Positions 1-15,015 are shown, numbered from the stretch's first letter. The stretch: DNA of 32,000 bases from Planctopirus limnophila DSM 3776 (GCF_000092105.1 NC_014148.1:360001-392000), one strand, 5' to 3'. The notes: a model not told the origin generated them from the sequence alone. A program made the numbers and translations.

Positions 1-773
1 TCGCGAACGCTCGTAAAGTACTCATCGAGTTTGCGGCGGTCAGTCTTGCCCAGCTTCTGCTGAAGCTGGTCGGCATCTGCCTGAACCATATCGAGAATGC
101 TCTGGCGGTAATGATCTCGCTTTTTACGATTCTTGATTTCATCAACGCCACCGCCAAACAAACGTTCAAAGACGAGTTTGGGCCGGATTTCTTTCGCCAT
201 CGGTGTCGTGGGGGATTTCCACGAAATCGTATTTGAGTAAGCGCAGCTATAGCCTGAGTCGCACTGGCCGGCATTGCGGCCCCCTTCGAGCCCCAGTTCG
301 AGCGATGGAAGTTTGGTGGCAGCACCAATCTGTGCGGCAGCCACCTGATCGACGGAAACACCGGCTTGAATATCGGCCCCGGCGGTTTTGCGAGGATGCA
401 CACCTGTGAGGAATGTTGCTGCCGAGCGTGCATGATCACCCGGCCCGTCGCCTAAAGCCCGTGCATTGTTCTGCGCCAGGTGGGACATGACGTTGAGCTT
501 TTCCTTGACCTTGGCAAGTGGTTCCAGTGATGGCGGGAGTGAGAAGCCGGCACCTTCTTTGACAGGCTGCCAGGAATCCATGACCACACCGTTGGGCACA
601 AAGACAAAAGCCATGCGGTTCAGAGCTGTCGATGCCATCGCCGCTTCAGCGGTCGCCAAGTGAGCGGGAAGCATCGCTTCCAACACCGGGAGAGACATCG
701 TCACACCCAGCCCTTTGAGCATCGTGCGGCGATCTACAGCTGATTGCCAGCGGGAGAGTTTATTGATGTTCAT
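1..773 (-). CDS. DUF1501 domain protein (sulfatase-like, Tat-signal), 5' part only; C-terminus lies beyond window start
   Basis: The minus frame is open from the window edge to the ATG at 773-771. Translation MNINKLSRWQSAVDRRTMLKGLGVTMSLPVLEAMLP... has a twin-arginine-like signal. Further in it reads ...ALGDGPGDHARSAATFLTG..., typical of planctomycete DUF1501. The start overlaps the upstream stop as ATGA (770-773), the usual PSD/DUF1501 pair arrangement. Confidence 0.85.
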   Translation of the reverse strand, partial: MNINKLSRWQSAVDRRTMLKGLGVTMSLPVLEAMLPAHLATAEAAMASTALNRMAFVFVPNGVVMDSWQPVKEGAGFSLPPSLEPLAKVKEKLNVMSHLAQNNARALGDGPGDHARSAATFLTGVHPRKTAGADIQAGVSVDQVAAAQIGAATKLPSLELGLEGGRNAGQCDSGYSCAYSNTISWKSPTTPMAKEIRPKLVFERLFGGGVDEIKNRKKRDHYRQSILDMVQADADQLQQKLGKTDRRKLDEYFTSVR

Positions 774-3529
774 AGTGTTGACCCTTCACCACGACGAAGC
801 CGGAATGGTTCGCTCTTGACGATCTCTTTGACCAATACTGAGAAACGGAAATTCTGGGCACTTAGCTCACTATTAATACGATTCACCGAGCAGCGATCAT
901 AATATTCCAGCCCCCGGCCCAGTGCATACGTTAGAAGCTTCTCAGTTAAACACTCGGTGAACGCTTTTTGTTTCTTGGTCTTCAGAATATTGACCATTTC
1001 GACTGGCCCGCTGAACGAATCGCCACTGGGCAATGTTCCTGAGGTATCGACTGGTTTGCCACCATCATCTTTACGATACCGGCCGATAGCATCGAAGTTT
1101 TCCAGGCCGAAGCCCAGAGTGTCCATCGTCTTATGGCACGAGGCACAAGCCGGATTTGACCGGTGTTGTTCCATCTGCTGGCGAAGTGAAAGGCCGGCGG
1201 ATTGCTCCTTTTTGTCTTCCAATTCAGGGACATTGGGGGGTGGCGCAGGAGGTGGAGAATCGAGAATCGTTTCCATAATCCATTTGCCGCGCTTCACGGG
1301 GGAAGTGCGCGTGGGGTTGGAAGTAATGGTGAGCACACTGGCCTGTGTCAGCACGCCGGCTCGATTTGTCCCGGCCAGGCTCACCTGGCGGAATTCATTC
1401 CCCTTAACATCCGGGAGGCCGTAGTGTGCGGCCAGTCGTTCATTCACAAATGTGTAGTCTCCCACGAGCAGGTCCAGAACGCTGCGGTCTTCCTGTACAA
1501 TGGCGCGGATGAACTGCCGGGTCTCTTCCTTCATGTCACGGCGCAGATCGTCATTGAACTGCGGGAAGGCTTTTGGATCAGGGGTGACTTCGTCAAGAAT
1601 GCGCAATTGCAGCCATTGTTCGGCAAAGTTCTCAACAAGCGCTGAGGATCTGGGATCCTGAAGCATGCGGCGGACCTGGGCATCGAGAATCAATTCGTTG
1701 CCGAGATCGCCCACCCGGGCATGTTCAAACAGTTCGTCATCGGGCATCGTGCTCCACAAGAAGTACGACAGCCGTGACGCCAGTTCGTACGAGTTGATGA
1801 TGTGGGCACTCTTGGGATTTTCCGGCTCTTTGTCGGATTCAATACGGAAGAGGAAATGTGGCGAAACCAGCACTGCTTGAACGGCGACCTGCATCCCGAA
1901 TTCAAAGGTTTCACCGGCTGCGGTGGCTTGCTCGACCAGACCGACAAACTTCGATAGTTCCTCGTCTTGTGGCGGACGACGGAATGCTCGCGTGACAAAC
2001 GGAGTAAGGTTCTCCCGGGCTGCTTCGCTGATCGTTTTGCCGGGTGCTCCATTTTCACCACTGGCCGAGGGAACAGCTTTCACCAGCCGGGTATGCGAAG
2101 CGGGATAGCTATTGGGCAAAACCTTCGATGGCCCGGTAAGGGAGGCTGACAGGATGACGAGATTGCGATCCCGCCGCTTCGGATCCTTGGCCTTCTCATC
2201 ATAAAAATCGTTCAGGAAGGCGAGCGAAATGTTTCGCTTCCCCTGCAGGAGAGTGACCGGAAGCGAATATGTTTCAGGTTTACGATCAGTAGCCGAGACT
2301 TCAAAAACTTTGAGTTCCTGACCATCGAGGCGAACTGCCATCTTCGCGCGGTCAGTTCCTGCGGGTGTTTCGGCAGCGACGACTTTGAGGACGTATTCAC
2401 CAGAAAGTGCGACATCCACGGGAATGGTGGCATCCCCTGTGGAGACGAGAATGATGCTGGGATCGTCTTCGCCTCCATGATTGTGGGCCACTTTGCTTCG
2501 CTGAAGTTCACGACCTTTCCATTTTTTGACGGGAAGATCATTGGGATCGATGGAAACAATGGCAGCCTGAGCCAGCTTATCTGCCGCATCGAGATACTTT
2601 TCCATGAGAAGTGGCGGGAGTGACAGGACATCACCGATGTTGTCAAAACCGTAACCCACGTCATCGGAAGGAAAGCTGTCAGCCGGTCGGAGATCGACGC
2701 CCAGCAGGTCGCGGACGGTGTTGTTGTATTCTGTGCGATTGAGCCGGCGAACCGTCACACGGCCAGGATCGGGATTGGTCGCACAATCGACGTAATACAC
2801 AGTCGAATCGAGGAAGCTGACGAGCTTCGCCCGTTCTTCTTCGGTGGGTTGAGGGCTGTCATCGGGTGGCATGATCTGCCCCTCGACGATCTGCATGATA
2901 CGCTCCCACTGCTTGCGATCTTTCAGGATTGAAGCGGTGTCGGAGTATTTGTCGAAAGCGATACCGGCTTCGGCATCAGGCCCCTGATGGCAGTCAATGC
3001 AGTACTTCTGCATGAAGGGGGCTGCATTTTCGGCATACGAGGGGAGGCGGTGTTCAGCCGCCTGTGCCACACCGGCAGTCGACGGTGACGCGTCGCCACT
3101 GGGTGAGCGTGGCCACAGAAATGCAACGATTCCCCCCAGTAGACCCAGGAAAGCTACGCCACCGACAATGATGCCGACGACGGGTTGTGATGATGAGGAT
3201 TTCCCTCGTGAAGTGCGATTGCCTGAACCTTTTCGGCGCGAGGCAGGAAGTGGAGCGCTTCGAGAGGGTTTGGAACTATCGCCAGTCGAGCGGCCAGCTT
3301 TCCCTTTTCCCTTGAGAGGAGGAGGTGCAGCAGCAGGGGCTTCTTCGTAATCTTCGAGATCATCACTGGAGAAGCCGAACTCCTCGAGCTCTTCCTCTGG
3401 AGCGGAAGCCACAGGAATCCGGAGCACCTGCCGACAATCAGTGTTAGGACAGTATGCCTTTTTGCCTGCAAACTTAGCATCCACCTTAAAGGCATGATCG
3501 CAGGCAGGACATGTCACACGAATGCGCAT
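770..3529 (-). CDS. Planctomycete PSD-family protein (PSCyt3/DUF1587-DUF1592-DUF1595-DUF1588-DUF1585 type) with N-terminal zinc ribbon and TM anchor
   Basis: 919-aa ORF with an ATG start. The heme-binding CIDCH motif (MQKYCIDCHQGPDAEAGIAFDKY) is followed by long PSD-type regions. A C-terminal ACASCHKTMDTLGFGLENFDAIGRYR block is characteristic of DUF1588/DUF1585. The N-terminus, MRIRVTCPACDHAFKVDAKFAGKKAYCPNTDCRQVLRIPV, is a CxxC...CxxxxC ribbon. A hydrophobic segment VVGIIVGGVAFLGLLGGIVAFLW follows. Confidence 0.85.
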   Translation of the reverse strand: MRIRVTCPACDHAFKVDAKFAGKKAYCPNTDCRQVLRIPVASAPEEELEEFGFSSDDLEDYEEAPAAAPPPLKGKGKAGRSTGDSSKPSRSAPLPASRRKGSGNRTSRGKSSSSQPVVGIIVGGVAFLGLLGGIVAFLWPRSPSGDASPSTAGVAQAAEHRLPSYAENAAPFMQKYCIDCHQGPDAEAGIAFDKYSDTASILKDRKQWERIMQIVEGQIMPPDDSPQPTEEERAKLVSFLDSTVYYVDCATNPDPGRVTVRRLNRTEYNNTVRDLLGVDLRPADSFPSDDVGYGFDNIGDVLSLPPLLMEKYLDAADKLAQAAIVSIDPNDLPVKKWKGRELQRSKVAHNHGGEDDPSIILVSTGDATIPVDVALSGEYVLKVVAAETPAGTDRAKMAVRLDGQELKVFEVSATDRKPETYSLPVTLLQGKRNISLAFLNDFYDEKAKDPKRRDRNLVILSASLTGPSKVLPNSYPASHTRLVKAVPSASGENGAPGKTISEAARENLTPFVTRAFRRPPQDEELSKFVGLVEQATAAGETFEFGMQVAVQAVLVSPHFLFRIESDKEPENPKSAHIINSYELASRLSYFLWSTMPDDELFEHARVGDLGNELILDAQVRRMLQDPRSSALVENFAEQWLQLRILDEVTPDPKAFPQFNDDLRRDMKEETRQFIRAIVQEDRSVLDLLVGDYTFVNERLAAHYGLPDVKGNEFRQVSLAGTNRAGVLTQASVLTITSNPTRTSPVKRGKWIMETILDSPPPAPPPNVPELEDKKEQSAGLSLRQQMEQHRSNPACASCHKTMDTLGFGLENFDAIGRYRKDDGGKPVDTSGTLPSGDSFSGPVEMVNILKTKKQKAFTECLTEKLLTYALGRGLEYYDRCSVNRINSELSAQNFRFSVLVKEIVKSEPFRLRRGEGSTL

Positions 3530-3896
3530 GGCAGGCGAAACTTCCGGGGCAGGAGGCGACAGGCGGGATGTGTGAATTCAGTTTGGACGAACGCATCCAA
3601 ATTCACTGTTGTAAGTATAGCGCGCGATTCAAGCAAAAGTCCACCACAAGAAAGAGGGTTTTACGCATTCCCTAATTATTGCACTAACAATGGATTACGA
3701 CAAAAACTCTGAATCTGTTGGCGCTCTGGTGTCGCCAGAATGTGCAATGCGTCAAGAATTCAGGCAACACGTCGAATCTGCGAGTTATTTGATCGATCTT
3801 CAGTAGGCACCACGGGTTAATGATCAACCTCGACGGCGAGTTTTCGTGGACTGCTTCTCAAAAAGTCCGTCAATCTAAGCAATTGAGCCGCAAAGA

Positions 3897-6428
3897 ATGC
3901 TACATCAAGAACTTACATCGATGCTCTCGGGCCTTCCTGAGCATCTTCAAGAGCGGACACGGATACTCTCTTCGCCATTGAGTTTGTCGACGGCCGCAAA
4001 TGATCCGGATCAAGCCACAACCCATGGTGACTTTGTCCTGTACTGGATGCACCATTCACTCCGGGGCCACGAAAACCCGGCACTTGATGTCGCCATTCAT
4101 TTGGCACATTGGCTCGAGAAGCCACTGCTGGTTTATCAGGGGCTCTCGGAAGATCACCCCTATGCCAATGATCGCAGGCATACGTTCATTCTCCAGGGAG
4201 CACGCGATGTTCATGCGGAACTGGCCGAGCAGAAGATTTCCTCGGTGCTCCATGTCGCGCGGGCCGAAGATCGCGGGCCTCACCTCAAGACACTGGCTGC
4301 TCACGCGGCGGTTCTCGTGACAGATGATGTCCCGACCGCTCCGACGATTCACTGGCGCAATCGACTGGCTGCCTCCATCAAGACGCCGATTGTGTGTGTC
4401 AATGGTGCGTGCATTGTGCCGCCCCAATTGGTCAAGCGGGCCTTTGATCGCGCCTTTGCCTATCGAGAAGCAACGGCATGGCTCTACAAAACCCGCAATA
4501 CCCGCCCGTGGCCAGTGCTTCGTTATGCAGGGAAGCCGTTTCCACTTGATCAGCGACCCTTCCAATCAGTCGATCTGCAGCAGACGTCGATTGCCGATCT
4601 GCTGGCAATCAGCCAGATCGATCACTCGGTTGGTCCTGTTCAACATACCGTGGGAGGTTCTCAGGCAGGTTATACCCGCTGGGAAAACTTCAAAAAGCAG
4701 GGATTGAGACGCTATGCCGATCAGCGGAACGATGCCCTCAAGGATGGCGTCAGCCGGATGTCGGCCTATCTGCATTACGGCATGGTTTCCCCCTTCACAC
4801 TGGTGCGAGATTGTTTTGAAGTCGGTGGCGCCAGTGCCGAGAAATATCTCGATGAACTCCTCATCTGGCGTGAACTCGCCTGGTGCTTTTGCCACTACCG
4901 CACAGATCACGAGGCTCTTTCAGCACTCCCCACCTGGGCTCGACAGGCTTTGAAGGCTGGAGAAGCCGATACCAGGCCTGCTTTGTACGATGAAGAAACG
5001 CTGGCTCGTGCGCAGACGCATGATCCCCTCTGGAATGCGGCTCAAATGTCACTCCTTCGCCAGGGAGAACTCCATAACAATGTGCGGATGACCTGGGGCA
5101 AAGCCATTCCTCTCTGGACACGCACGACCGAAGAGGCCTTGCGACTGCTGTTCGATCTTAATCATCGATACGCCCTCGATGGCTGCGATCCGGCATCGTA
5201 TGGCGGTCTGTTGTGGTGTCTGGGACAGTTCGACAGGCCATTTACTCCCGAAGAACCCATCTTGCGGAGTATTCGAGGACGTTCGACGGCCGAGCATGCC
5301 CGCCGGTTGAACCCCGAGAAGTATCTGGCGAAAACCTCCCGTCGCCTGACAGCGGAACCTGTCAAAGTGGCTGTGATTGGTGCCGGCATCACGGGACTGA
5401 TGGCAGCCCGCACGCTGTCCGATCATGGCTTCGAAGTGGAGGTCTTTGAAAAGAGCCGTGGGCTGGGCGGACGCATGGCCACTCGTCGCCTTCCCGAAGG
5501 TGGTCAGTTCGATCATGGCTGCCAGTACATCACGGCGAAGTCGCCTCAATTTGAGAGATCCTTACGCTCATGGGAGAGCCAGGGGCTGATCACACCCTGG
5601 CAAGGGCTCTTGGCAGCACAGCGGACCGATGGTTCGTGGAAAGAACTCGCAGCGAACGGGCCTCGCTATGTGGGGCTTCCCGGCATGACCTCGATGGCCC
5701 GGCATTTAAGTCAGGGTCTGAAAGTTCATCAGGAGGTGCAGATTCAAAAAGTCGAGCGGATCGCCAACCAGTGGCAACTGCAGAGCACACAGGGAACTGT
5801 TGCAGGACCTTTCGATCAACTCATTCTGGCAATACCCGCCGGACAGGCTGCGCGACTTGTGGGTGAACATCCTTTGGCGGAAACTCTGGCCAGAATTCCC
5901 ATGGATCCCTGCTGGACCGTGATGGCCACTTTATCTGATCGACTCAATCTTCCCTTTGATGGTTACCTGAGCCACGCGGCATTGGCACCGGCTGTGGGGT
6001 GGGCAGCGCGAGATACATCCAAACCCAAACGGCCGACAGATGCCGAACGCTGGGTGTTGCAGGCGACACCGGCATGGACGAGGAGTCACCTCGACCTTTC
6101 CGCAGATCAGGTGGCCACCGAACTCTGGCACCACTGGTGTGAGCAGATCAGCCTTCAGTCCCACAGCCTTCAGGTCCACAGGACGCCCGAGCTTGTAGCA
6201 CACCGCTGGATGTTTTCCACGCTGGATCCCACGAAGGTTCCTGCGGAGATTTACCAGAAGCTGTCGATCGAGCGCGCCTTGCATGATCCCGAGCATGGCC
6301 TGACTGTTTGCGGAGACTGGACGAGCGAAAGTCGAGTCGAAGCGGCCTATCTTTCTGGCATCGCCGCCGCCGGTTTTGTCCTCAGGCAACACCTGATTGC
6401 GAAGCCGGCAGCTCAGTTGCTCTTTTGA
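3897..6428 (+). CDS. Fusion protein: class II CPD photolyase (aa 1-~480) + renalase-like NAD(P)/FAD-dependent oxidoreductase (aa ~488-843)
   Basis: The N-terminal half matches class II photolyase blocks: FVLYWMHHSLRGHENPAL, RMSAYLHYGMVSP, YLDELLIWRELAWCFCHY, THDPLWNAAQMSLLRQGELHNNVRMTWGKAIPLW, RYALDGCDPASYGGLLWCLGQFDRPF. The C-terminal half has a Rossmann motif VAVIGAGITGLMAARTLSDHGFEVEVFEKSRGLGGR, then FDHGCQYI, MDPCWTV and VCGDWTSESRVEAAYLSG, as in bacterial renalase/COG3380 proteins. It is a single uninterrupted ORF. Confidence 0.8.
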   Translation: MLHQELTSMLSGLPEHLQERTRILSSPLSLSTAANDPDQATTHGDFVLYWMHHSLRGHENPALDVAIHLAHWLEKPLLVYQGLSEDHPYANDRRHTFILQGARDVHAELAEQKISSVLHVARAEDRGPHLKTLAAHAAVLVTDDVPTAPTIHWRNRLAASIKTPIVCVNGACIVPPQLVKRAFDRAFAYREATAWLYKTRNTRPWPVLRYAGKPFPLDQRPFQSVDLQQTSIADLLAISQIDHSVGPVQHTVGGSQAGYTRWENFKKQGLRRYADQRNDALKDGVSRMSAYLHYGMVSPFTLVRDCFEVGGASAEKYLDELLIWRELAWCFCHYRTDHEALSALPTWARQALKAGEADTRPALYDEETLARAQTHDPLWNAAQMSLLRQGELHNNVRMTWGKAIPLWTRTTEEALRLLFDLNHRYALDGCDPASYGGLLWCLGQFDRPFTPEEPILRSIRGRSTAEHARRLNPEKYLAKTSRRLTAEPVKVAVIGAGITGLMAARTLSDHGFEVEVFEKSRGLGGRMATRRLPEGGQFDHGCQYITAKSPQFERSLRSWESQGLITPWQGLLAAQRTDGSWKELAANGPRYVGLPGMTSMARHLSQGLKVHQEVQIQKVERIANQWQLQSTQGTVAGPFDQLILAIPAGQAARLVGEHPLAETLARIPMDPCWTVMATLSDRLNLPFDGYLSHAALAPAVGWAARDTSKPKRPTDAERWVLQATPAWTRSHLDLSADQVATELWHHWCEQISLQSHSLQVHRTPELVAHRWMFSTLDPTKVPAEIYQKLSIERALHDPEHGLTVCGDWTSESRVEAAYLSGIAAAGFVLRQHLIAKPAAQLLF

Positions 6429-6653
6429 GCCGGGGTTTTGGTCAGGGGCTGATTCAAAAGATGATGGTTACGGAACGAGTCCTTGCCTTTCCTCGCGAGA
6501 AGACGCAGTTTGTCCTACTCATGGATTGATCAATGTTCATTCATGCGATATGCCATGACGGGGTAAGCCACATTCTCTGAGGTAGCCTTCATGAGTGATT
6601 CTCTGCTTTCTCAAGATCGAACGGTTTTAGTCATCCGTCGCACGGCTGGAGCG

Positions 6654-7667
6654 ATGACGAAATTCGCTATTCTTCTCACGGTAGCAATCTTCGCTTTCAA
6701 ATGGCCTATACAGCAACTGCGGGGCGAAACGGGATTGGCTGCACAAGTTGTTGTCAATCCCGCAGCAGTTGTCGGTCGTCCAGAGATTGTCGAACGAACT
6801 CCGGGACTGGTCGCCTTCTGGAAGTTTGGCGAAGAGCCGGGCCAGCCGCGGCTTTCGACCGGTACTCCAGAAAAGCATCCTTTGGTTGAAGTTGGCGGGC
6901 CGATTGGACGAGTGGCGGGAGGGCCATTTTCGGGCTATTCCATCGACTTCAATGGTCAGCAGTACCTGATGGCGAAGCATGCGGAACTGGGCGACCTGGA
7001 TATTCATGGTCCCGAGGCGCAGGTCAGTATGTTTGCAGTCGTCAAACTCACCGAAATGAAACGAGGCGTGACAATTGCCGGGATCTGGAGTGAAGGCAAA
7101 GGTGCTCACGACGATACCGGTGCCCGGCAATATGCCATGCTGCTGAACATGCCGACTTATGGTGGCCCGCGGCAATTGACACCCCATGTATCGAGTGAAG
7201 GCGGTGTGACCCGTCGGGCGGATGGTAGCCCGTTTCCCTGGTGTGCCGACTATGCCGCGTCTAAATCGGTTGTTCCCGAGGGGAAATGGGTGACTCTCGC
7301 TTTTACCTACGATGCAAAGTATCTCAAAGCTTACTTCAATGGTCTGCTTGAGCCCCGAGCGATAGAGCCCAAGACCGACAAGCGGGACGACCCTTACTTT
7401 ATGACAGAAGGGCCTGGCGGATCGCCACGAGGCATTAATCCTTATTATCACGGTCGAGGGATCTTTCACTTCCAGCCAGAACTGCACGCGCAGTCAAAAC
7501 CAGGTGGCCCGGCCGACTTTACAGTGGCGGCACGTTATGCAGTCGGCAGCATGCTGGGTGAAGCTATGAAAGGCCAACTGGGCGGGCTGGCTGTGTTCAA
7601 TCGCGCTTTGAGCGATGATGAAGTTCTTTCGCTTCACAAAGCCAGTGCCATCGACAAACTTCCCTGA
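6654..7667 (+). CDS. Secreted LamG-like (concanavalin A-type jellyroll) domain protein
   Basis: The ORF is 6591-7667. I prefer the ATG at 6654, which is preceded by GGAG (6647-6650) and gives the signal-like MTKFAILLTVAIFAFKWP. The C-terminal GQLGGLAVFNRALSDDEVLSLH resembles the Laminin_G_3 terminal motif (...NRALS..E...L). The assignment is by motif only. Confidence 0.6.
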   Translation: MTKFAILLTVAIFAFKWPIQQLRGETGLAAQVVVNPAAVVGRPEIVERTPGLVAFWKFGEEPGQPRLSTGTPEKHPLVEVGGPIGRVAGGPFSGYSIDFNGQQYLMAKHAELGDLDIHGPEAQVSMFAVVKLTEMKRGVTIAGIWSEGKGAHDDTGARQYAMLLNMPTYGGPRQLTPHVSSEGGVTRRADGSPFPWCADYAASKSVVPEGKWVTLAFTYDAKYLKAYFNGLLEPRAIEPKTDKRDDPYFMTEGPGGSPRGINPYYHGRGIFHFQPELHAQSKPGGPADFTVAARYAVGSMLGEAMKGQLGGLAVFNRALSDDEVLSLHKASAIDKLP

Positions 7668-7709
7668 GTCCGCGGACTTGAAAATTCGAGTTTGTTTTTC
7701 AATCGGATG

Positions 7710-8645
7710 TTACTGGCTCGATGATTTTGATTTCGCAATGAGTGCCAGCATTTCAAAAGCGAGATTGGCACCCAATACCGAGGTAATGGCTGAAGGATCG
7801 TAAGGGGGGCTGACTTCGACGACATCTCCGCCAACAATTCTCAGGCCTGCCAGCCCACGCAGAATTCCAGTGGCTTCACGACTGGTTAACCCACCAATTT
7901 CGGGAGTCCCCGTCCCCGGTGCAAATGCCGGGTCGAGGGCATCGACGTCGAAGGAAAGATAGACCGGCTGATTACCCACCTGCTGGCGGATTTCGTCCAC
8001 AATCGAGCGCACGCCGCGCTCTCCCACGTCATCGGCAGAGATAATGCGTGCTCCTAAAGCCCGGGCATCGAGGTAATCGCTGGCCGAATAGGTCGGCCCG
8101 CGAATACCAATCTGAAAGTAGCGCTGAGTATCAATCGCACCCGCTTCAATGGCTCGAATAAAAGGTGTGCCATGGCTGAGTGGATAGCCCGGATACTCTT
8201 CCGTCCAGGTGTCGCCGTGTGCATCGAAATGCACGACGGCGAGCGGCCCATGTTTTGCGGCGGCCGCTTTCAGCAAGGGTAATGCGACGGAATGTTCGCC
8301 GCCCAGTCCCAGGACCATTGTGCCTTGATCAATCCAGGCTCTGGCCGCTTGTTCGATCAATGCGTGTGTACGGGCAATATCGACCGGGATGACATCCACA
8401 TCGCCGGCATCGACCACCTTGAGGACATCGAACGGGGCGATGTTCAGAGCGTTGTGATACCCCCAGAGCATCATCGACTGTTCCCGTATCGCCCGCGGAC
8501 CAAACCTCGTTCCCGAGCGATAGCTGACCGAAGAGTCAAAAGGGCACCCCAGCACCGCAACATCAACATTCCGGCCCGCAACAGGTGCCAGACAAATCTC
8601 CTGCCGCCCAAAAGAAGCAATCCCGCAGAATGGTGAGTTGGACAT
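7710..8645 (-). CDS. speB: Agmatinase / ureohydrolase family (arginase fold)
   Basis: Mn-binding and family motifs are present: GGEHSVALP, VVHFDAHGDTW, YLSFDVDALDPAFAPGTGTPEIGGLTSREA, VGGDVVEVSPPYD. The maximal ORF runs to 8822. The internal ATG at 8645 (MSNSPFCGIASF...) gives a family-typical length. Substrate (agmatine versus another guanidino compound) cannot be decided from sequence. Confidence 0.8.
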   Translation of the reverse strand: MSNSPFCGIASFGRQEICLAPVAGRNVDVAVLGCPFDSSVSYRSGTRFGPRAIREQSMMLWGYHNALNIAPFDVLKVVDAGDVDVIPVDIARTHALIEQAARAWIDQGTMVLGLGGEHSVALPLLKAAAAKHGPLAVVHFDAHGDTWTEEYPGYPLSHGTPFIRAIEAGAIDTQRYFQIGIRGPTYSASDYLDARALGARIISADDVGERGVRSIVDEIRQQVGNQPVYLSFDVDALDPAFAPGTGTPEIGGLTSREATGILRGLAGLRIVGGDVVEVSPPYDPSAITSVLGANLAFEMLALIAKSKSSSQ

Positions 8646-9047
8646 AGTGTCTCTTATCCAGCTGAGCGAGGAGATTTTCGAATCATTTGAAATCGTCGCG
8701 CGCACCGACATTGCATAGGGTGGAAAGTACTGATTCCATCGTCGTGCATAATGTCCTTTTTTCCGACACAAACTTCCAGCAGAATAAATCCCATCGAAAC
8801 ACTGTAGAAAACTTCTCGCCAAATTCTCTTCTGAGACGCAGTTTTTGTTCCCGTTTTGATTCGAGTTTGCAGCGTCTCTCTATTGCCTTATGGTGTTGAC
8901 GTAATCGAAGTTATCCCGCAGATAAAGCAGGTTTGCCTATGGGTGAACCTCTTCTCGCTGCCGGGTAGGATCATGTAAAACGGTCGTCGGGGAGTCTGTA
9001 CACAAGTCATCGTATTCGAGAGCAGTCACGCACTGAGGGCATAGACC

Positions 9048-11231
9048 ATGAACAAGCTGAGCATTGAGCTGACCAACTGCTATGGGATCAAGCACCTTAA
9101 GACGGAGTTCGACTTCGCTTCGAGTAAGTCGTCACGACCGAACGTCTTTGCGATCTACGCCCCCAACGGCGCGATGAAGTCGTCCTTCGCACAGACCTTC
9201 AAGGACATCGCGGACGGTAAAGCATCCAAGGACAGAATCTTCCCAGAAAGGGTCTGTGAAAGAACTGTCCGCGACGAAAACGGCATGGATCTGCTACCAG
9301 AAACAGTGGTTGTCGTGTCCCCATATGACAGGGACTGTGCCCACGCAGAGAAGACATCAACCCTGCTCGTAGACCATAAGCTTCGAACAGAGTACGAGCA
9401 ATTGCACTTGGAGGTGGATCGTGCAGAGACAGCATTCTTGGACGCCATGAAGGCGCAGTCGCGATCAAAAAAGGACATAAAGCGAGAAATCTCTTCCACC
9501 TTCACGAGTGATTCAAATTCCTTCCACCTCGCCCTTAGTCGAGTCAAGGATGAAGTGGTAGAGATGGCGAGTTCTCCATGGGCGGAGATTCTCTATGACG
9601 TTCTGTTTACCGACCAGGTGCTAACTCTCTTTGAGCAAGAGGCCGTTAGGAAAGACTTGCACACCTACGTCGCCAAGTACAACGACCTGCTGGCAAAGTC
9701 CACATACTTCAAGCATGGCATCTTCAACTATTACAACGCCGGACAGATTGCGAAGAGTCTGGCGGACAACGGATTCTTCAATGCAAACCACACGGTGTCG
9801 CTGAACGCCCAAGAATGCAAAGTGATTTCTAGCCAGAAGGAACTTGAAGAAGTTGTCACCAAGGAGAAGGAGGCAATCACCAACGACAAAGCTCTGAAGT
9901 CGGTATACGCCAAGATCGAGAAGGCTCTTGAAAAGAATGCTGCATGTCGCGAGTTTCAGCAGTACATCAGCGACAGGCCGGAGATTCTGCCTCGGCTTGA
10001 AAACCCCAAAAGCCTTAAGGAAGAAATCTGGAAGTCATATTTTAAAGCGAACTCAGCGCTGTACCTCGATTTGATCGAGAAGATTCAGAAGGTTGCAAAA
10101 CGCAAGAAGGAGATCCAAGAGAAGGCGAGGACTCAGCGAAGCCAATGGGAAGAGGTGATCGGCATCTTCAATAGCCGGTTCTCGGTTCCGTTTACGCTGA
10201 TTGCAGAGAACCGCGTTGAGGTCTGTCTGGGACAAGAGGGCATCCTTAAACTGGGGTTTCAGTTCAAGGACGGGGTTGACAGCGCGTCTGTTGAACGCAA
10301 CACACTGCTGGAGGTGCTTAGCACGGGTGAACGCAAGGCGTTTTACATCCTTAACATCATCTTCGAGGTGGAGGTAAGGCGAAAGGCTGGCGTTGAAACT
10401 CTATTCGTGTTTGACGACATCGCGGATTCGTTCGACTACAAGAACAAGTACGCGATCATCCAGTACATGCAAGACATCACGGATGTTCCCAGCTTCCGCC
10501 AAATTATCCTTACCCATAATTTCGACTTCTTTCGCACCCTGGAAAGCCGGTTCGTTCCCTACGCCCAATGCCGCATGGCTTTCAAGACAAGCACTGGACT
10601 TATCTTTAAGAAGGCAGAAGGCATTCAGAACGTGTTCCTCAACGACTGGAAGAAAAACTTCTTCACTGATCAAATGAAGAAGATTGGCTCCATTCCTTTC
10701 ATGCGAAACATCCTTGAGTACACGAAGGGTGACGGAGACCCGGAGTACCTGAAGTTGACTTCTCTTCTGCATTGGAAGTCAGACACCCCATCAATCACAG
10801 AGGCAGACCTTGACACCATCTTCATTACAATGTTTGCCGTTGGCATGGGAGCTTGCGGAGGTAGCACGACTCCAGTTGTTGACCTGCTGGCGTCAGAGGC
10901 CACTAAGTGTCTGTCTGCTAGCGATGGAATCAACTTCGCAAACAAGATCGTCCTTGCAATTGCCATTAGGCTCACTGCTGAAAAGTACATGATCGACAAG
11001 ATCGCTGACCAAGCATTTGTTTCATCGATCACCAAGAATCAGACACAAGCACTGGTATCAAAATTCAAGAAAACATTCCCAAATGATGTCACAACTAACG
11101 AAGTTCTGCATCGTGTATGCTTGATGACGCCGGAGAATATTCACCTGAATTCATTCATGTATGAGCCAATTCTCGATATGTCAGACGAACATCTTCGGAC
11201 GCTGTACCAAGATGTTGTCGCGCTAATTTAG
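9048..11231 (+). CDS. Orphan ABC-type/AAA_13-like ATPase with long coiled-coil insert and C-terminal effector-like domain (PrrC/RloC-like architecture)
   Basis: ATG with a GAGGG Shine-Dalgarno 8 nt upstream. There is an N-terminal P-loop-like IYAPNGAMKSSFAQTF (aa 36-51), then a ~370-aa Lys/Glu-rich helical region. The ABC signature LSTGERKAF (aa 424-432), Walker B LFVFDDIADSFD (aa 452-463) and H-loop ILTHNFDFF (aa 487-495) follow. A ~230-aa C-terminal domain ends the protein. My hand-counted G+C was 48-50%, versus 55-57% in the neighbours. Confidence 0.75.
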   Translation: MNKLSIELTNCYGIKHLKTEFDFASSKSSRPNVFAIYAPNGAMKSSFAQTFKDIADGKASKDRIFPERVCERTVRDENGMDLLPETVVVVSPYDRDCAHAEKTSTLLVDHKLRTEYEQLHLEVDRAETAFLDAMKAQSRSKKDIKREISSTFTSDSNSFHLALSRVKDEVVEMASSPWAEILYDVLFTDQVLTLFEQEAVRKDLHTYVAKYNDLLAKSTYFKHGIFNYYNAGQIAKSLADNGFFNANHTVSLNAQECKVISSQKELEEVVTKEKEAITNDKALKSVYAKIEKALEKNAACREFQQYISDRPEILPRLENPKSLKEEIWKSYFKANSALYLDLIEKIQKVAKRKKEIQEKARTQRSQWEEVIGIFNSRFSVPFTLIAENRVEVCLGQEGILKLGFQFKDGVDSASVERNTLLEVLSTGERKAFYILNIIFEVEVRRKAGVETLFVFDDIADSFDYKNKYAIIQYMQDITDVPSFRQIILTHNFDFFRTLESRFVPYAQCRMAFKTSTGLIFKKAEGIQNVFLNDWKKNFFTDQMKKIGSIPFMRNILEYTKGDGDPEYLKLTSLLHWKSDTPSITEADLDTIFITMFAVGMGACGGSTTPVVDLLASEATKCLSASDGINFANKIVLAIAIRLTAEKYMIDKIADQAFVSSITKNQTQALVSKFKKTFPNDVTTNEVLHRVCLMTPENIHLNSFMYEPILDMSDEHLRTLYQDVVALI

Positions 11232-11415
11232 CGGTGGGTGAGTTGGGCTTTACCGAATTCTTTTACATCAATTTCAGGCTGCTTTGTCAGCGGGATGATT
11301 GCAAAATGTTTCACTTCCGCGTTTGTCACCGCCACGATTGAAGGAATGCCTTCCAATTGGAGACAATCATCCGATCTCAAGACTTGGAGTCGGCAATCTC
11401 TCAGGAACATTGATC

Positions 11416-12744
11416 ATGTCGCGGCGAATTAGAATTTCGGGGGCGGAGTGTGTGTTGCCTTCTGGATTGTGGAAGGGGGATGTGTTGATTGAGGGGGGGA
11501 GGATTCTGGATCTGGATCCGCCAGCCTCTGCAAGGGCCGATGATGTGATTCAGGCCGCCGGACTCCATCTGATCCCGGGCGTGATTGATGATCAGGTGCA
11601 CTTTCGTGAGCCGGGATTAACGCATAAGGAAGATCTCGCCACCGCTTCAGCAGCCTGTGCCAAGGGGGGAGTCACCACCTTCTTTGAAATGCCGAACACC
11701 AAGCCCACAACCACCACTGTCGAGAGGCTGCACGAAAAGCTGGCCTTGGCAGCCACCAAATCGGTCGTGAACTATGCGTTCTACATCGGTGCAACGCCGA
11801 CCAATGTCGAAGAACTCAAATTGGCCCGGCGAACGCCCGGCATCAAAATCTTCATCGGTTCCAGCACTGGCGATCTGCTGGTGGATGAGCAGGCCGCCCT
11901 CGAACAGATTTTTGCCGAAACCACACTTCCCATTTGTGCCCATTGCGAAGATGAGGCGACTGTCCGTGCGAATGCCGCTCGTTTGAATGGTGGCTCGAAG
12001 GTGCAGGACCATTCGCTGATTCGTGATCACAAGGCGGCGGAGATCGCCACTCGCAGGGCACTCGATCTGGCATATCGGCACAAGCACCGCTTCCATGTGC
12101 TGCATGTTTCGACTGCGATTGAAACCGAGATTGTGGCTGATCATCGCGGGCTGATCACAGCCGAGGCCTGCCCGCATCATCTGTTCTTTAACGTGGACGA
12201 CTACGACCGTCTGGGCACGCTGATCCAGATGAACCCATCGATCAAGACGCAGGACGACGTGACGGCCCTGTGGAAGGCGCTGCGTGACGGGCGGATTCAG
12301 GTCATCGCGACAGATCATGCACCGCATACACTGGAGGAAAAGCGGCAACCGTATCCGAAGTCGCCTTCTGGTTTGCCAGCCGTCGAAAATTCGCTGGCAC
12401 TCATGCTCGATGCGGCTCATCGCGGGTTCTGCACTATCGAAGAAGTGGTGAGCTGGATGTGTGACGCCCCAGCCCGTGTGTGGGATCTCGTGGGAAAAGG
12501 ACGGATTCAGCCGGGTTATGATGCCGATCTGGTGCTGGTCGATCTCAATAAGTCACAGACCATCCGCAACGAGGACCAACTGACCAAATGCGGCTGGAGC
12601 CCCTGGGCCGGGACAACTCTGACGGGCTGGCCAGTGGTGACGCTGGTGCATGGGGAAGTCGTCTTCGCTGATGGCAAGGTGGATACCGGCCATCGAGGCA
12701 AAGAGGCGATCTTCGATCATTCGCGGGGCGGGTTTTGGGGTTAG
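11416..12744 (+). CDS. pyrC: Dihydroorotase (amidohydrolase superfamily, ~440-aa type)
   Basis: Motifs are [20 protein letters not shown] (HxH metal site), [23 protein letters not shown] and YDADLVLVD. The ORF track start at 11299 adds 39 non-conserved residues. The ATG at 11416 ([17 protein letters not shown]) fits the family N-terminus. Confidence 0.85.
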
Positions 12745-12804
12745 GAGAGGAGAAACGGAAGGAGAAAAGGCAAGAAGGAGGGAAGGAAAGAAGCCGGAGG
12801 GAGG
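12743..12804. repeat. 62-nt polypurine (GA) tract, 58/62 purines on the + strand, with 9 GGA motifs
   Basis: Read directly: aggagaggagaaacggaaggagaaaaggcaagaaggagggaaggaaagaagccggagggagg. It starts inside the pyrC stop codon. Only 4 C residues interrupt it. Confidence 0.9.
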
Positions 12805-13088
12805 TTTGGTCTGGTGGGTGCCGGTGATGGAACAGTCGGAGCACTGCTGGCGAGCCAGCAGTGGCACACGGGGAATCGTTGGCAAAAGTCTGCGTTCGCA
12901 GTTGCAACGAAGAAGAGTTCGGTCAGGTTTTCTCTGGTGTTTCTCCGCGGTAAGAGCGTCAATTTTGTAGCCACAAGGCTGATGTTTTTGGTGAGATCCA
13001 TGCATAGGATAAACCATCGAGGAGAGTTCGCCGATGGTCGCCGCGAGGCTGGCCGGCCTCTGTTAATGATCTGGATAAGGGACGTGGC

Positions 13089-13793
13089 ATGACCGCAGAA
13101 GAAATCGTGGCACAACTCCAAAAGCTGGGAAGCGAAGGGACGGCCAAGGTTCTCCGTAAACATGGTGCTCATGATCCTTGTCTTGGGGTTAAAATCGGCG
13201 ATATGAAGCCCCTGCAGAAGCAGATCAAAAAAAACTATGGGTTATCGCTGGAGCTCTACGATACCGGCATTTACGACGCTATGTATCTTGCCGGATTGAT
13301 TGCAGAGCCAGAACTGATGACCAAGAAAGACCTGACGCAATGGGTCAAGACAGCGTCCAGGCCGATCGCCAATTTCGTCGTCGGCCCGACAGCGGCTGGC
13401 AGTCCAGCGGGTTGGAACATCGCGCTGGCCTGGATCAAGTCCAGGAAGGAAATTGAGAATATCGCCGGTTGGGCCACTCTTTCTGCGATGGCCAGTATTG
13501 ACCCCGACGAAAAACTTGATCTCACGGAGTATCAACGATTGCTGGCCGAGGTCGAAAGCAAAATTCATGCGGCGAAGGATGCCGTACAGTATCAGATGAA
13601 CTCTTTTGTCATCTCGGTGGGAAGTTATCTTCGCCCCTTAACCGAAGTGGCGATCGAAACTGGAAATCGAATCGGCCGGTTGAAAGTCGACATGGGCGAC
13701 ACCGACTGCAATGTCCCGTTCGCGCCTGAATATATCCAAAAAGTGAAGGATCGCGGCAACCTGGGAAAGAAGCGCAAGTCTGCCATGTGTTGA
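13089..13793 (+). CDS. DNA alkylation repair protein (AlkD-like HEAT-repeat family, PF08713-type)
   Basis: The 234-aa sequence follows the family pattern end to end: MTAEEIVAQLQKLGSEGTAKVLRKHGA...FGVKIGDMKPL...LELYDTGIYDAMYLAGLIAEP...MNSFVISVGSY...VDMGDTDCNVP...GKKRKSAMC. Confidence 0.8.
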   Translation: MTAEEIVAQLQKLGSEGTAKVLRKHGAHDPCLGVKIGDMKPLQKQIKKNYGLSLELYDTGIYDAMYLAGLIAEPELMTKKDLTQWVKTASRPIANFVVGPTAAGSPAGWNIALAWIKSRKEIENIAGWATLSAMASIDPDEKLDLTEYQRLLAEVESKIHAAKDAVQYQMNSFVISVGSYLRPLTEVAIETGNRIGRLKVDMGDTDCNVPFAPEYIQKVKDRGNLGKKRKSAMC

Positions 13794-14002
13794 TCTCCCG
13801 GCACTTTCGGTGGGGGTTACCTATCGAGATCATCAACCTCGCCCAGCTCGCCCCTAACATCCAAGAAGCGATCCTCGACCTCGAACCAACCACCGACCAC
13901 GTCCCCCGCTTCCGCGAACGCGAAGTGCGCACCATCGCGATCGTCCCAAACTGGGAGAAGCAACGGGTGCTTTGGAAACGGCTCGTCAAGCGAACTAGCT
14001 AG
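13787..14002 (+). pseudogene. Remnant or short version of a small 'LAPxIQExIL' protein of the kind found next to recombinases in mobile elements
   Basis: The GTG-started 71-aa ORF overlaps the alkD-like stop. The sequence ...IINLAQLAPNIQEAILDLEPTTDHVPRFREREVRTIAIVPNWEKQRVLWKRL matches, from memory, the C-terminal half of small HTH proteins (LNLAPDIQE.IL.L.....I.ER.LR.I....W..QR..W). The N-terminal HTH part appears to be missing. Confidence 0.4.
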
Positions 14003-14250: not shown

Positions 14251-15015
14251 TTACTTGACCTTAACGGCGTTACTCGCATCCGGCTCGACCTGCCAAACTT
14301 CCTGCAAAACCTTTACCATCGCCGGGTCGTGTTGTTGCAGTTCCGCGCGATCAAAGGGGAAGAAATCATTGCGGCCAAAGTAGGCTTCCGTGGATTCCGC
14401 AAAATACTCTTGCGGGTTGGTGAGCGCGTAGGCCTTTTCTTTATTTCCGTCTTTCCGCAGCACCACTTCGTAACTGCCGCTATTACGTGCCCGCTCGAAC
14501 GCGGTTTTGATCAGGGCGTTATCGAACCCGAGCACTTGGTAGTGGTACGCGTGGGCGAGTTCATGCAGCACGATAACCGGCATCCGCTCAATCTCACGCT
14601 CGAAAATCGCCGTGGTGGTGAATTCGACGCATTGATAAAGCTCCTTCAAGCGACCTTGTTTTTCGAGCCACTCTTTGTCGGAATGATACTCAGCCTTCGG
14701 ACGAACGCCGGCGTAAGGTGGCGAGAACCAAATCGGCACCGTGCGAACGAACGCCAACGGCTCCGCAGGCAAAACGCGGATCACGATGCGAAGTTGCTCG
14801 GCGAGCAACTCCAACGCTCGCTTTGTTTTCTCAGGTTGTTCCTGTGACAATCGCTCGCTGACCCGCACGACCCAGCCCTCCACCTCGTGCGTTGTATATC
14901 CGGCAATCGGTGCGGGCAACGCGGCCCGCTCGTCGGCAACACAGCATCGCATCGACGACGCGGTTACCGATACAAATATGAGAACGGCGAGCATCCAAGG
15001 GTGATGTGAATTCAT
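14251..15015 (-). CDS. Secreted HExxH zinc metallopeptidase (MtfA / lethal-factor-like clan)
   Basis: It has a signal peptide MNSHHPWMLAVLIFVSVTASS and the motif VIVLHELAHAYHYQ (HExxH). A downstream NPQEYFAESTEAYF is the E-x-F-A-E type third-ligand region seen in the MtfA/ATLF-like gluzincins. Confidence 0.65.
   Translation of the reverse strand: MNSHHPWMLAVLIFVSVTASSMRCCVADERAALPAPIAGYTTHEVEGWVVRVSERLSQEQPEKTKRALELLAEQLRIVIRVLPAEPLAFVRTVPIWFSPPYAGVRPKAEYHSDKEWLEKQGRLKELYQCVEFTTTAIFEREIERMPVIVLHELAHAYHYQVLGFDNALIKTAFERARNSGSYEVVLRKDGNKEKAYALTNPQEYFAESTEAYFGRNDFFPFDRAELQQHDPAMVKVLQEVWQVEPDASNAVKVK

Follow-up and report, generated by a model that had tools for sequence, protein, structure and literature searches.

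The locus described here raises the question of which family a solitary ATPase gene lodged between two core genes of a planctomycete belongs to, and whether it is a defence gene acquired from elsewhere. We analysed a stretch of 32,000 nucleotides (nt) of Planctopirus limnophila DSM 3776 (GCF_000092105.1, NC_014148.1:360001-392000), hereafter the window, with all positions counted from its first letter. An open reading frame (ORF) at 9048..11231 on the plus strand, with an ATG start and its stop codon at 11229-11231, encodes a protein of 727 amino acids (aa), exactly in the position, start and length given by an earlier interpretation made without database searches (the sequence-only reading). 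That reading had proposed a horizontally acquired, single-gene defence module with the architecture of AAA_13 proteins such as the anticodon nucleases PrrC and RloC, and perhaps an undescribed variant of them. Our data indicate that the protein is, judged by its sequence, an intact and divergent member of the catalogued but uncharacterised family PDC-S46, and that the gene is an accessory one at this site; with little more than even confidence, we take it to be a self-contained, horizontally mobile immunity protein, in which an ATP-binding cassette (ABC) ATPase would serve as sensor for a fused effector.

The family assignment is given by a match of residues 1-726 to positions 1-718 of the 719 positions of the PADLOC profile PDC-S46 (model PDLC05023; E 6e-267, 886 bits), and by a full-length match to phrog_38705 of the PHROGs collection (function unknown; E 7e-181); NCBIfam has no model of the family. 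Both matches being full-length, the segment 9048..11231 is a complete gene for a 727-aa PDC-S46-family ABC ATPase; furthermore, PDC-S46 was the sole or best PADLOC match for each of the four sub-domains taken separately. The suggestion of an undescribed variant therefore fell away, since the family already stands in both collections, and a routine PADLOC run would flag the gene. The PDC families are 145 untested "guilt-by-embedding" candidates drawn from genes found inside BREX, DISARM, restriction-modification (R-M) and Hma loci (Payne et al., 2024, bioRxiv 10.1101/2024.01.29.577857). In an independent study, four of the eight PADLOC candidates tested were protective, PDC-S46 not being among the eight.

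Homologues detected at E ≤ 1e-3 form more than 7,500 clusters at 90% identity and 1,943 clusters at 50% identity, and the best 150 of the latter are nearly all of about 720 aa and align from end to end. Members from seven phyla (Chloroflexota, Acidobacteriota, Nitrospirota, Omnitrophota, Desulfobacterota, Verrucomicrobiota, and Pseudomonadota) are 72-86% identical to one another. The window protein shares with the family its length, domain order, invariant residues, and organisation as a single-gene unit, and keeps all residues conserved in at least 90% of members except for a conservative replacement, M474 for L; residue conservation, here and below, was counted over 147 diverse family members. 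It differs in its divergence, being about 60% identical to its nearest homologues (62% to the nearest in the databases), which share about 75% among themselves, and in lying as an orphan between housekeeping genes and not inside a defence system.

The neighbours are a speB-like arginase/agmatinase-family core gene (7710..8639, minus strand; Pfam Arginase, E 3e-96) and pyrC, a core gene for a dihydroorotase-type amidohydrolase (11416..12744, plus strand; Pfam Amidohydro_1). The solitary placement between them had been recognised from the sequence, with spacers put at about 400 and 184 bp; we measured 408 and 184 bp. The mechanically called start of speB, TTG at 8822, makes the gene 61 codons too long, so that it reaches into the inserted spacer, and homology with a close relative points to the ATG at 8639. 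This relative, contig VFQR01000761.1 (L085), was the one close relative that a metagenome scan with speB brought up, its speB being 97% identical (tblastn, residues 1-309, 97.4%; for pyrC, residues 1-442, 95.7%). L085 aligns to window positions 1-8647 (92.7% nucleotide identity) and 11423-13804 (89.7%), and there speB and pyrC, adjacent and divergently oriented, are separated by 153 bp that contain no ATPase gene, against an interval of 2,776 bp holding the gene in the window. The gene is clearly accessory, present here and missing at the same speB-pyrC site in a close relative. Moreover, a pyrC scan of GTDB species representatives gave at least 600 candidate stretches, with relatives encoded in 594 of the 600 scanned; in the best 80, kept as loci (59-74% identity), the ATPase was found in none (0/80), nor was any window neighbour shared. 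This wider comparison shows that the gene is not a conserved neighbour of pyrC, and is silent on recent gain or loss. Taken as a check of synteny, the two surveys returned no orthologue at the speB-pyrC site, either in L085 or in the 80 pyrC loci.

A foreign origin had also been argued from composition, and here the individual figures stood while part of their interpretation did not. The gene has a G+C content of 0.490, compared with 0.51-0.58 in the other 18 genes and 0.540 for the window; nine of its 32 Arg codons are AGA or AGG, and the protein is enriched in Lys, Asn, Ile, and Phe. By codon position, G+C is 0.50 at the first, 0.34 at the second and 0.63 at the third (GC3), the last being at the high end of the host genes, so that the low G+C is confined to the first and second positions and follows from the Lys/Asn/Ile/Phe-rich amino-acid composition. 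Bulk G+C was consequently rejected as evidence of foreign base composition, GC3 being host-like, and the AGA/AGG share, which reaches 0.30 in host genes, is not discriminating by itself. Codon choice was assessed by scoring how likely the gene's synonymous codons are given the usage in the remaining 18 genes, with length and amino acids controlled for. This codon-adaptation check, also foreseen in the sequence-only reading, identified the gene as the strongest outlier of 19 (z = -6.8; the next two at -3.7 and -3.4), with a preference for GAC, AAG, AAC, TAC, and TTC where the host prefers GAT, AAA, AAT, and TAT. Deviant codon choice and a nearest homologue only 62% identical favour acquisition, and with the empty L085 site and the absence from the 80 pyrC loci they leave the horizontal acquisition proposed earlier well supported.

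The junctions were then compared with the relative. Homology to L085 stops sharply at 8647 and the upstream spacer (8648..9047) is absent from it, while the downstream spacer between the ATPase stop and the pyrC start (11232..11415) is largely non-homologous to the L085 spacer; neither window spacer has significant similarity to that spacer, and the upstream one has none to the flanks of homologous loci. Identity of the flanks to L085 is flat (about 0.92-0.95) up to both junctions, on which ground allelic replacement through the flanking genes was discarded. A direct repeat of 10 nt, GGTGAGTTGG, occurs only twice on the plus strand of the window, with no reverse-strand match: the left copy (8632..8641) falls within speB codons 2-5 and lies 6 nt from the left breakpoint, and the right copy (11237..11246) lies 6 nt past the ATPase stop codon. 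By our own estimate, the chance of a second copy within the 2.8-kb interval is about 0.005, and the pair may represent recombination microhomology. A simple insertion with target-site duplication was likewise discarded, as the DNA past the right copy is barely similar to the L085 spacer: the 169 bp nearest pyrC (11247-11415) score z = 2.45 against the 145-bp spacer of L085, compared with 27 for a control spacer that is truly orthologous. The search for inverted or direct repeats of at least 12 nt on either side of the insertion found none, and no tRNA gene lies near the locus, the two in the window being about 7 and 11 kb away. In the upstream spacer we found only chance-sized, unconserved small ORFs and no Rfam match, and scans for sigma-70 promoters and terminators stayed at or below shuffle expectation; this spacer appears to have come with the gene and must carry the promoters of both the ATPase gene and the divergent speB.

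An AlphaFold2 model of the full-length protein (54 sequences; mean pLDDT, the per-residue confidence score of the model, 80) places the strands of an ABC head at aa 1 to about 95 and about 380-523, with a helical region between them and an all-helical region from about 524 to 727, a C-terminal domain of 204 aa. Accordingly, four segments can be assigned on the plus strand. The N-terminal half of the head (aa 1-100; 9048..9347) comprises beta strands and the P-loop helix, and includes a deviant Walker A motif, YAPNGAMKSS (Y37 to S46; 9156-9185). It is followed by the helical insert (aa 101-380; 9348..10187) and by the C-terminal half of the head (aa 381-523; 10188..10616), in which are found the signature L424-S-T-G-E428 (10317-10331), the Walker B and D-loop stretch FVFDD-IADSFD (10401-10436; Walker B F453 to D457, D-loop aa 460-463 with S461-F-D463), and the H-loop T489-H-N491 (10512-10520). 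The last segment is the all-alpha C-terminal domain, a putative effector (aa 524-727; 10617..11228). The P-loop, LSTGE, FVFDD, and THN lie at the very residues assigned to them from the sequence, in canonical order and in a head split by an insert, as is characteristic of SMC/Rad50-like ATPases.

Two of these motifs depart from the canonical form across the whole family. In Walker A, where N40 (146/147), G41 (142/147), M43 (145/147), K44 (146/147), and S46 (143/147) are nearly fixed, Met43 takes the position of the Gly of canonical P-loops. Walker B reads DD and not DE, with D456 and D457 each present in 146 of the 147 members, and thus lacks the usual catalytic Glu. Nothing varies within the family at F462, D463, H490, N491, D493, and F494 (147/147 each). 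In Foldseek searches with the whole model, the head of Smc was matched at E 1e-6 (5xei), the retron Ec83 chain 9e8z_C at E 8e-5, and Septu PtuA (8eea_D) at E 9e-4; heads of Rad50, RecF, and AriA were also matched, and 8v45_A at E 1e-2. The listed heads span E values from 1e-6 to 1e-2 and identities of 8-17%, with a Foldseek probability of 1.0 for the top eight matches, and the low TM-scores are due to the several domains of the model. Profile matches within the C-terminal half of the head were those to Pfam SMC_N (19 bits, E 9.5e-4, cut-off 40), NCBIfam RecF (20.8 bits, E 1.7e-4, cut-off 172), and the heads of PADLOC PDC-S06 (E 7e-10), and the N-terminal half gave weak PADLOC matches to the LmuB and AbiLi heads. 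The head belongs to the SMC/Rad50-like ABC clade, in a position peripheral to AAA_13.

The insert is shorter than had been read from the sequence, about 280 residues in the model (about aa 100-380) and not about 370. It consists of many short helices and a small beta hairpin, the longest helix having 27 residues (DSSP of the model), and shows neither a long coiled coil nor a hinge. The earlier statement that a CxxC zinc hook is missing holds for the entire 727-aa protein, in which no CxxC was found. No Pfam or NCBIfam family matches the insert; among close homologues, it is as conserved as the head (identity 0.78), and it is presumed to be a dimerisation or sensor module.

Filing the protein with AAA_13, PrrC, and RloC was not sustained. 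Where a match to Pfam AAA_13 (PF13166; gathering threshold 36 bits) had been expected, none was obtained at E ≤ 1. Four relatives do pass this profile (P0120 at 45 bits, P0260 at 40, P0265 at 38.6, and P0123 at 38), with alignments restricted to profile positions of about 277-615 of 713; these take in the insert and the head's second half, and in no case the C-terminal part. The whole protein matched PDC-S46 alone in PADLOC at E ≤ 1, with no PrrC or RloC model; the separate domains, searched at E ≤ 10, matched PDC-S46, PDC-S06, LmuB, and AbiLi only, again with neither model, although PADLOC presumably contains one for PrrC. The defence-gene search proposed in the sequence-only reading thus returned the full-length PDC-S46 match and did not recover the kinship with PrrC and RloC. 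The earlier remark that the gene has no hsd or R-M partner was confirmed, no such Pfam domain being present in the 19 other window genes scanned. Membership in the AAA_13/PrrC/RloC group was thus rejected on the lack of a profile match, of the CxxC hook, of the Rx4-6H motif, and of an R-M partner.

The comparison with these nucleases remains instructive with regard to architecture. RloC, a Rad50-like ABC ATPase with a C-terminal HEPN anticodon nuclease, resembles the window protein in being a single polypeptide with an insert-split head and an all-helical C-terminus, in not being tied to an R-M system, and through the PDC-S46 relatives that pass AAA_13. In contrast, the window insert is a bundle of short helices (27 residues at most) without a long coiled coil or CxxC hook, the C-terminal domain lacks Rx4-6H and belongs to a family whose members never align to the C-terminal part of AAA_13, and PDC-S46 has two deviant Walker motifs, with Met for Gly in A and DD in B. 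With PrrC, the anticodon nuclease of the type Ic R-M locus EcoprrI, the shared logic is that of an ABC-type NTPase controlling a C-terminal toxic domain; PDC-S46 relatives, too, often lie inside R-M or BREX-type loci, and in both cases a sporadic distribution goes along with a highly conserved sequence. PrrC has about 400 aa and no large insert. The window gene differs in its larger size and in having no hsd partner, no catalytic motif, and no match to the PrrC model.

Closer in fold for head and insert are PtuA (of Septu, and of the type I-A retrons Ec78/Eco7 and Ec83) and AriA (of PARIS), which are among the nearest solved structures and are defence ABC ATPases acting as sensor scaffolds; retron-Eco7 and PARIS are reported to act through tRNA degradation. 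These proteins use separate nuclease partners (PtuB, HNH; AriB, TOPRIM), whereas the presumed effector of the window protein is fused and the family has no conserved partner. Against the PtuA and AriA chains, TM-scores are 0.22-0.38 and sequence identity is about 9-13%.

The C-terminal domain is where the family is most distinctive. Modelled alone (aa 524-727), it folds with pLDDT 88 and a predicted TM-score of 0.87. Conserved polar residues, enzyme-like as a set, are R553-N554, H575, K633, R641-x3-E645, T694, H699, N701, E706, and D710, and among the residues of the domain R553, H699, N701, F703, E706, P707, and D710 are invariant (147/147). The most conserved stretch of the family, VxLMTPENIHLNSFMYEPILDMSDEHL (aa 690-716; 11115..11195), falls here, and its core segment T-P-E-N-I-H-L-N-S-F-M-Y-E-P-I-L-D lies partly in a loop that AlphaFold2 leaves unplaced, pLDDT falling under 50 at aa 700-704 of the full model and likewise at the matching residues of the domain model. 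As a separate observation, the 3' end of the gene (11124-11224) retains 76-88% nucleotide identity across phyla (L004, L165, L166, L167, and L170), compared with about 64-67% elsewhere in the gene, which roughly fits the near-invariant peptide encoded there.

Searches gave this domain little company. PADLOC at E ≤ 10 returned PDC-S46 only, Foldseek yielded no significant match in the PDB or BFVD, and no HD, HNH, PD-(D/E)xK, or TOPRIM signature or fold was found in the protein by profile and Foldseek searches. Its sole compact structural neighbour is 2q00 (117 columns, root-mean-square deviation 4.1 Å, TMt 0.59, probability 0.87), with no other HEPN structure among the Foldseek top 50 and no Pfam HEPN match. 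The structure 2q00 is a HEPN-T/PaREP1 domain, and in the PaREP1 branch the His of the HEPN Rx4-6H motif is retained and the Arg is not (Anantharaman et al., PMC3710099). ABC-HEPN fusions are a recognised defence architecture. Both the window domain and the PaREP1/8 branch have a conserved His without the Arg of Rx4-6H, together with other conserved basic residues elsewhere; the window domain differs in its size of about 200 aa and in an additional N-terminal helical sub-domain carrying R553-N554 and H575. Judged from topology and not from a residue-level superposition on 2q00, aa of about 610-727 could form a HEPN-like bundle, in which E645 would belong to the second helix, a long one, and H699 to the loop that precedes the last helix. 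The residue pattern resembles that of motif-deviant HEPN families, without the defining motif. The nuclease or effector similarity that the sequence-only reading looked for in this domain is therefore nearly wanting, with no significant match and only a weak HEPN-like superposition.

The genomic contexts of homologues bear on function more directly. In Dehalococcoides (L001), a PLD-SNF2 helicase, an MmeI-type methyltransferase, and a DpnII-MboI-family gene lie nearby, and in Bryobacteraceae (L002 and L003) an M78/HTH pair and a Bub-like ubiquitin system. Another copy (L168) stands between an SNF2 helicase with DUF2130 and a methyltransferase with ResIII; others are accompanied by SLFN, DUF3800, and HEPN genes and two integrases (L169), by recBCD and a second ABC ATPase (L170), or by HD-CE, GmrSD, and an AAA_16 ATPase (L171). 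The surroundings of L004 are mostly housekeeping, with an Eco57I-type enzyme 3.7 kb off. The second ATPase of L170 (L170:11723-13915), a distinct protein of 730 aa with SMC_N, AAA_23, and weak AAA_13 matches, is encoded 1.5 kb from the family member, which abuts recBCD. Neighbours differ at every context examined and most contexts are defence- or mobility-rich, with no conserved partner gene, flank, or small ORF across the chromosomal and plasmid contexts examined.

At least five phyla are represented among the 29 plasmids that carry homologues, of which 11 are conjugative, and viral copies are rare (one GenBank phage contig and two IMG/VR contigs). Among 5,426 complete Escherichia coli genomes, six hold an intact copy, and about 40 more hold 5' fragments only (the first 85-369 nt), some beside insertion sequence (IS) elements; a close E. 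coli homologue is WP_096983205.1 (strain 2017.11.01CC). The intact E. coli copy examined lies inside a locus running from mads1 through a DEAD helicase to pglX, in an integrase-bearing island, and E. coli APEC O2-211 (L174) has at 7001-7378 a remnant cut by IS1 in the same MADS-like locus; these fragments are signs of repeated decay of the gene. In the Providencia plasmid pPROV188-1 (L172, 3812-11715), the copy sits in an F-like leading region upstream of traM, with an orphan fragment of a type I M subunit on one side and an antirestriction gene on the other. Members of the family move with plasmids and islands, are often found inside R-M, BREX, MADS, or DISARM-like loci, and have no conserved partner. 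Consequently, the designation of a candidate single-gene defence module agrees with the end-to-end PDC-S46 match, with homologues in or near defence loci and on mobile elements, and with the lack of a conserved partner.

From this evidence we regard a defence function of some kind as probable, most likely immunity against phages in the main and perhaps against other invading DNA. Under such a reading, the protein would dimerise through its head and insert, as PtuA, Rad50, and AriA do, and the insert would mediate oligomerisation and the sensing of the trigger, as in these same proteins. The head may act as a slow nucleotide-dependent switch and not as a motor, as suggested by Met for Gly in Walker A and by a DD Walker B without the catalytic Glu. 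A phage-derived cue, whether protein, DNA end, or disturbance of the nucleotide pool, would release the C-terminal domain, which would then damage a conserved cellular target and bring about abortive infection. For this domain, the best fit would be an RNase that needs no metal, has a HEPN-like topology, and attacks a conserved RNA, given the invariant His/Arg/Lys/Glu/Asn/Asp cluster and the weakly HEPN-like four-helix topology, and PrrC, RloC, PARIS, and retron-Eco7/PtuAB would provide the precedent for targeting tRNA; an RNase effector in particular is, even so, a tentative proposal. The window gene is an orphan here and not a back-up to an R-M system. It is also conceivable, though doubtful, that PDC-S46 represents a new class of single-protein abortive-infection enzymes, in which a hydrolysis-poor ABC switch gates a new effector fold directed against a universally conserved RNA. 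The effector would then be either a motif-less HEPN derivative or a new catalytic domain built around the invariant H-x-N-x-F-M-Y-E-P-x-x-D loop, and this would explain identities of 72-86% across seven phyla.

Several findings weigh against an acquired immunity protein with a toxic C-terminal domain. At the locus, Pfam searches of the 19 other window genes returned planctomycete domains (PSD, PSCyt, and DUF1559) and metabolism, with no R-M, defence, or mobility domain; no integrase was found among the scanned window genes and no clean target-site duplication at the site, and with two genomes only, gain here and loss in L085 are not formally separated. As for the C-terminal domain, Pfam, NCBIfam, and a PDB profile search, each at E ≤ 10, gave no significant match, and the Foldseek E value for 2q00 is 1.5, which is not significant. 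Rx4-6H is absent from the set of residues conserved in the 147 members, and position 689, which closes the helix preceding H699 and lies 10 residues upstream of this His, is Arg or Lys in only 58% of members. Conservation of the whole protein, with the presumed sensor insert included, is unusually high for a defence gene, and no experiment on PDC-S46 was found in the searchable literature. Finally, the pPROV188-1 context fits a role in anti-defence or plasmid establishment equally well.

Other explanations were weighed as well. Immunity with a different effector is a possibility we rate as rather unlikely: the C-terminal domain might be a metal-dependent hydrolase (DNase, NTPase, or NADase, with H575, H699, E706, and D710 as ligands) or a non-catalytic sensor or adaptor, in which case it would be the ATPase itself that arrests the cell, through a clamp on DNA or the depletion of ATP. 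For metal sites, invariant His, Glu, and Asp are no less typical than for acid-base RNases; Rx4-6H and a significant HEPN match are both lacking, the most conserved segment is a flexible loop, and the SMC, Rad50, and RecF neighbours of the head are DNA-binding clamps. However, no HD, HNH, PD-(D/E)xK, or TOPRIM signature or fold was detected, the sole compact structural neighbour is a HEPN domain, and both Walker motifs, A being deviant and B being DD, speak against a motor that burns ATP fast. An improbable explanation is that of a mobile-element factor for anti-defence or establishment, which would neutralise or evade the R-M, BREX, or MADS systems of a recipient. Besides the leading-region copy of pPROV188-1 next to an antirestriction gene, it could draw on an Acinetobacter baumannii conjugative plasmid in which the gene directly follows the type IV secretion system genes, on the antirestriction gene of the E. 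coli island that carries it, and on umuDC-like genes, common leading-region cargo, near the copies in L169 and L172; it would also explain positions inside or beside R-M, BREX, and MADS loci. Nevertheless, most chromosomal copies lie inside defence operons in the same orientation and not on incoming elements, plasmids carry genuine defence systems as well, and the window copy is chromosomal, between housekeeping genes, with no mobile-element genes among the scanned neighbours. Moreover, a large ABC ATPase with an effector is an architecture typical of defence, and we know of no anti-defence protein built in this manner.

Least credible, to the point of being very improbable, is a variably present ATPase of SMC/RecF/RecN type serving repair or segregation, either as a housekeeping function or in the maintenance of mobile elements. 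The best structural matches are indeed to SMC, Rad50, and RecF heads, the SMC_N and RecF profiles give weak matches (19 and 21 bits), one homologue adjoins recBCD, and some plasmid copies lie near rep/par genes. Those profile scores are far under the curated cut-offs (40 and 172 bits), though, and the gene is missing from the closest relative and from the 80 related loci, grounds on which a housekeeping family was rejected; it is further opposed by the absence of a long coiled coil, hinge, or hook, by a sporadic distribution across phyla with 72-86% identity between them, and by E. coli, where 6/5,426 genomes have the gene intact and about 40 retain 5' fragments only.

Further observations concern the remainder of the window. 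Synteny with the relative (L085:1-7416) ends at window position 13805, just past a DNA-alkylation-repair gene (13089-13793); the ATLF-like, aldo-keto reductase, and SDR genes beyond it have no tblastn match in L085, which makes 13805 a further variable junction, only 2.5 kb away from the first. Between pyrC and the DNA-alkylation-repair gene, the spacer (12745-13088) is purine- and GGA-rich, with a GC skew of 0.27, and is indel-rich and much more diverged from L085 (identity 0.68) than its surroundings. In the matching spacer, L085 holds extra tandem copies of the GTGGCACA type, and window positions 12820-12870 match a second L085 site (4235-4285) at 96%, which may indicate a small dispersed repeat. 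On the plus strand, an ORF of 843 aa (3897-6428) joins a DNA-photolyase-like N-terminus to a C-terminal half of the amine-oxidase/NAD_binding_8 flavoprotein kind; it is 92% conserved in L085 and looks like an unusual fusion. On the minus strand, 14251-15015 encodes a protein of 254 aa with a hydrophobic N-terminus and an ATLF metalloprotease domain scoring 27.6 bits against a Pfam threshold of 27.4.

In brief, what P. limnophila carries here is an accessory gene, a copy, acquired horizontally, of a candidate defence gene already catalogued, and neither a housekeeping ATPase nor a homologue of PrrC or RloC. The empty site in L085 indicates that genes of this kind can come to lie between core genes and away from defence islands, at positions missed by discovery based on islands, and the window and L085 constitute a natural presence/absence pair at a single site. 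Intact E. coli copies in a MADS/BREX-like locus offer a tractable experimental system. The wider interest lies in the family, which is widespread and unusually conserved, with deviant ATPase motifs and a confidently modelled C-terminal fold that matches nothing known. In PDC-S46 one could learn whether a P-loop with Met for Gly, combined with a DD Walker B, is the mark of a switch as opposed to a motor, and defining the role of the C-terminal domain would enlarge the ABC-ATPase defence repertoire by an effector of a new type.

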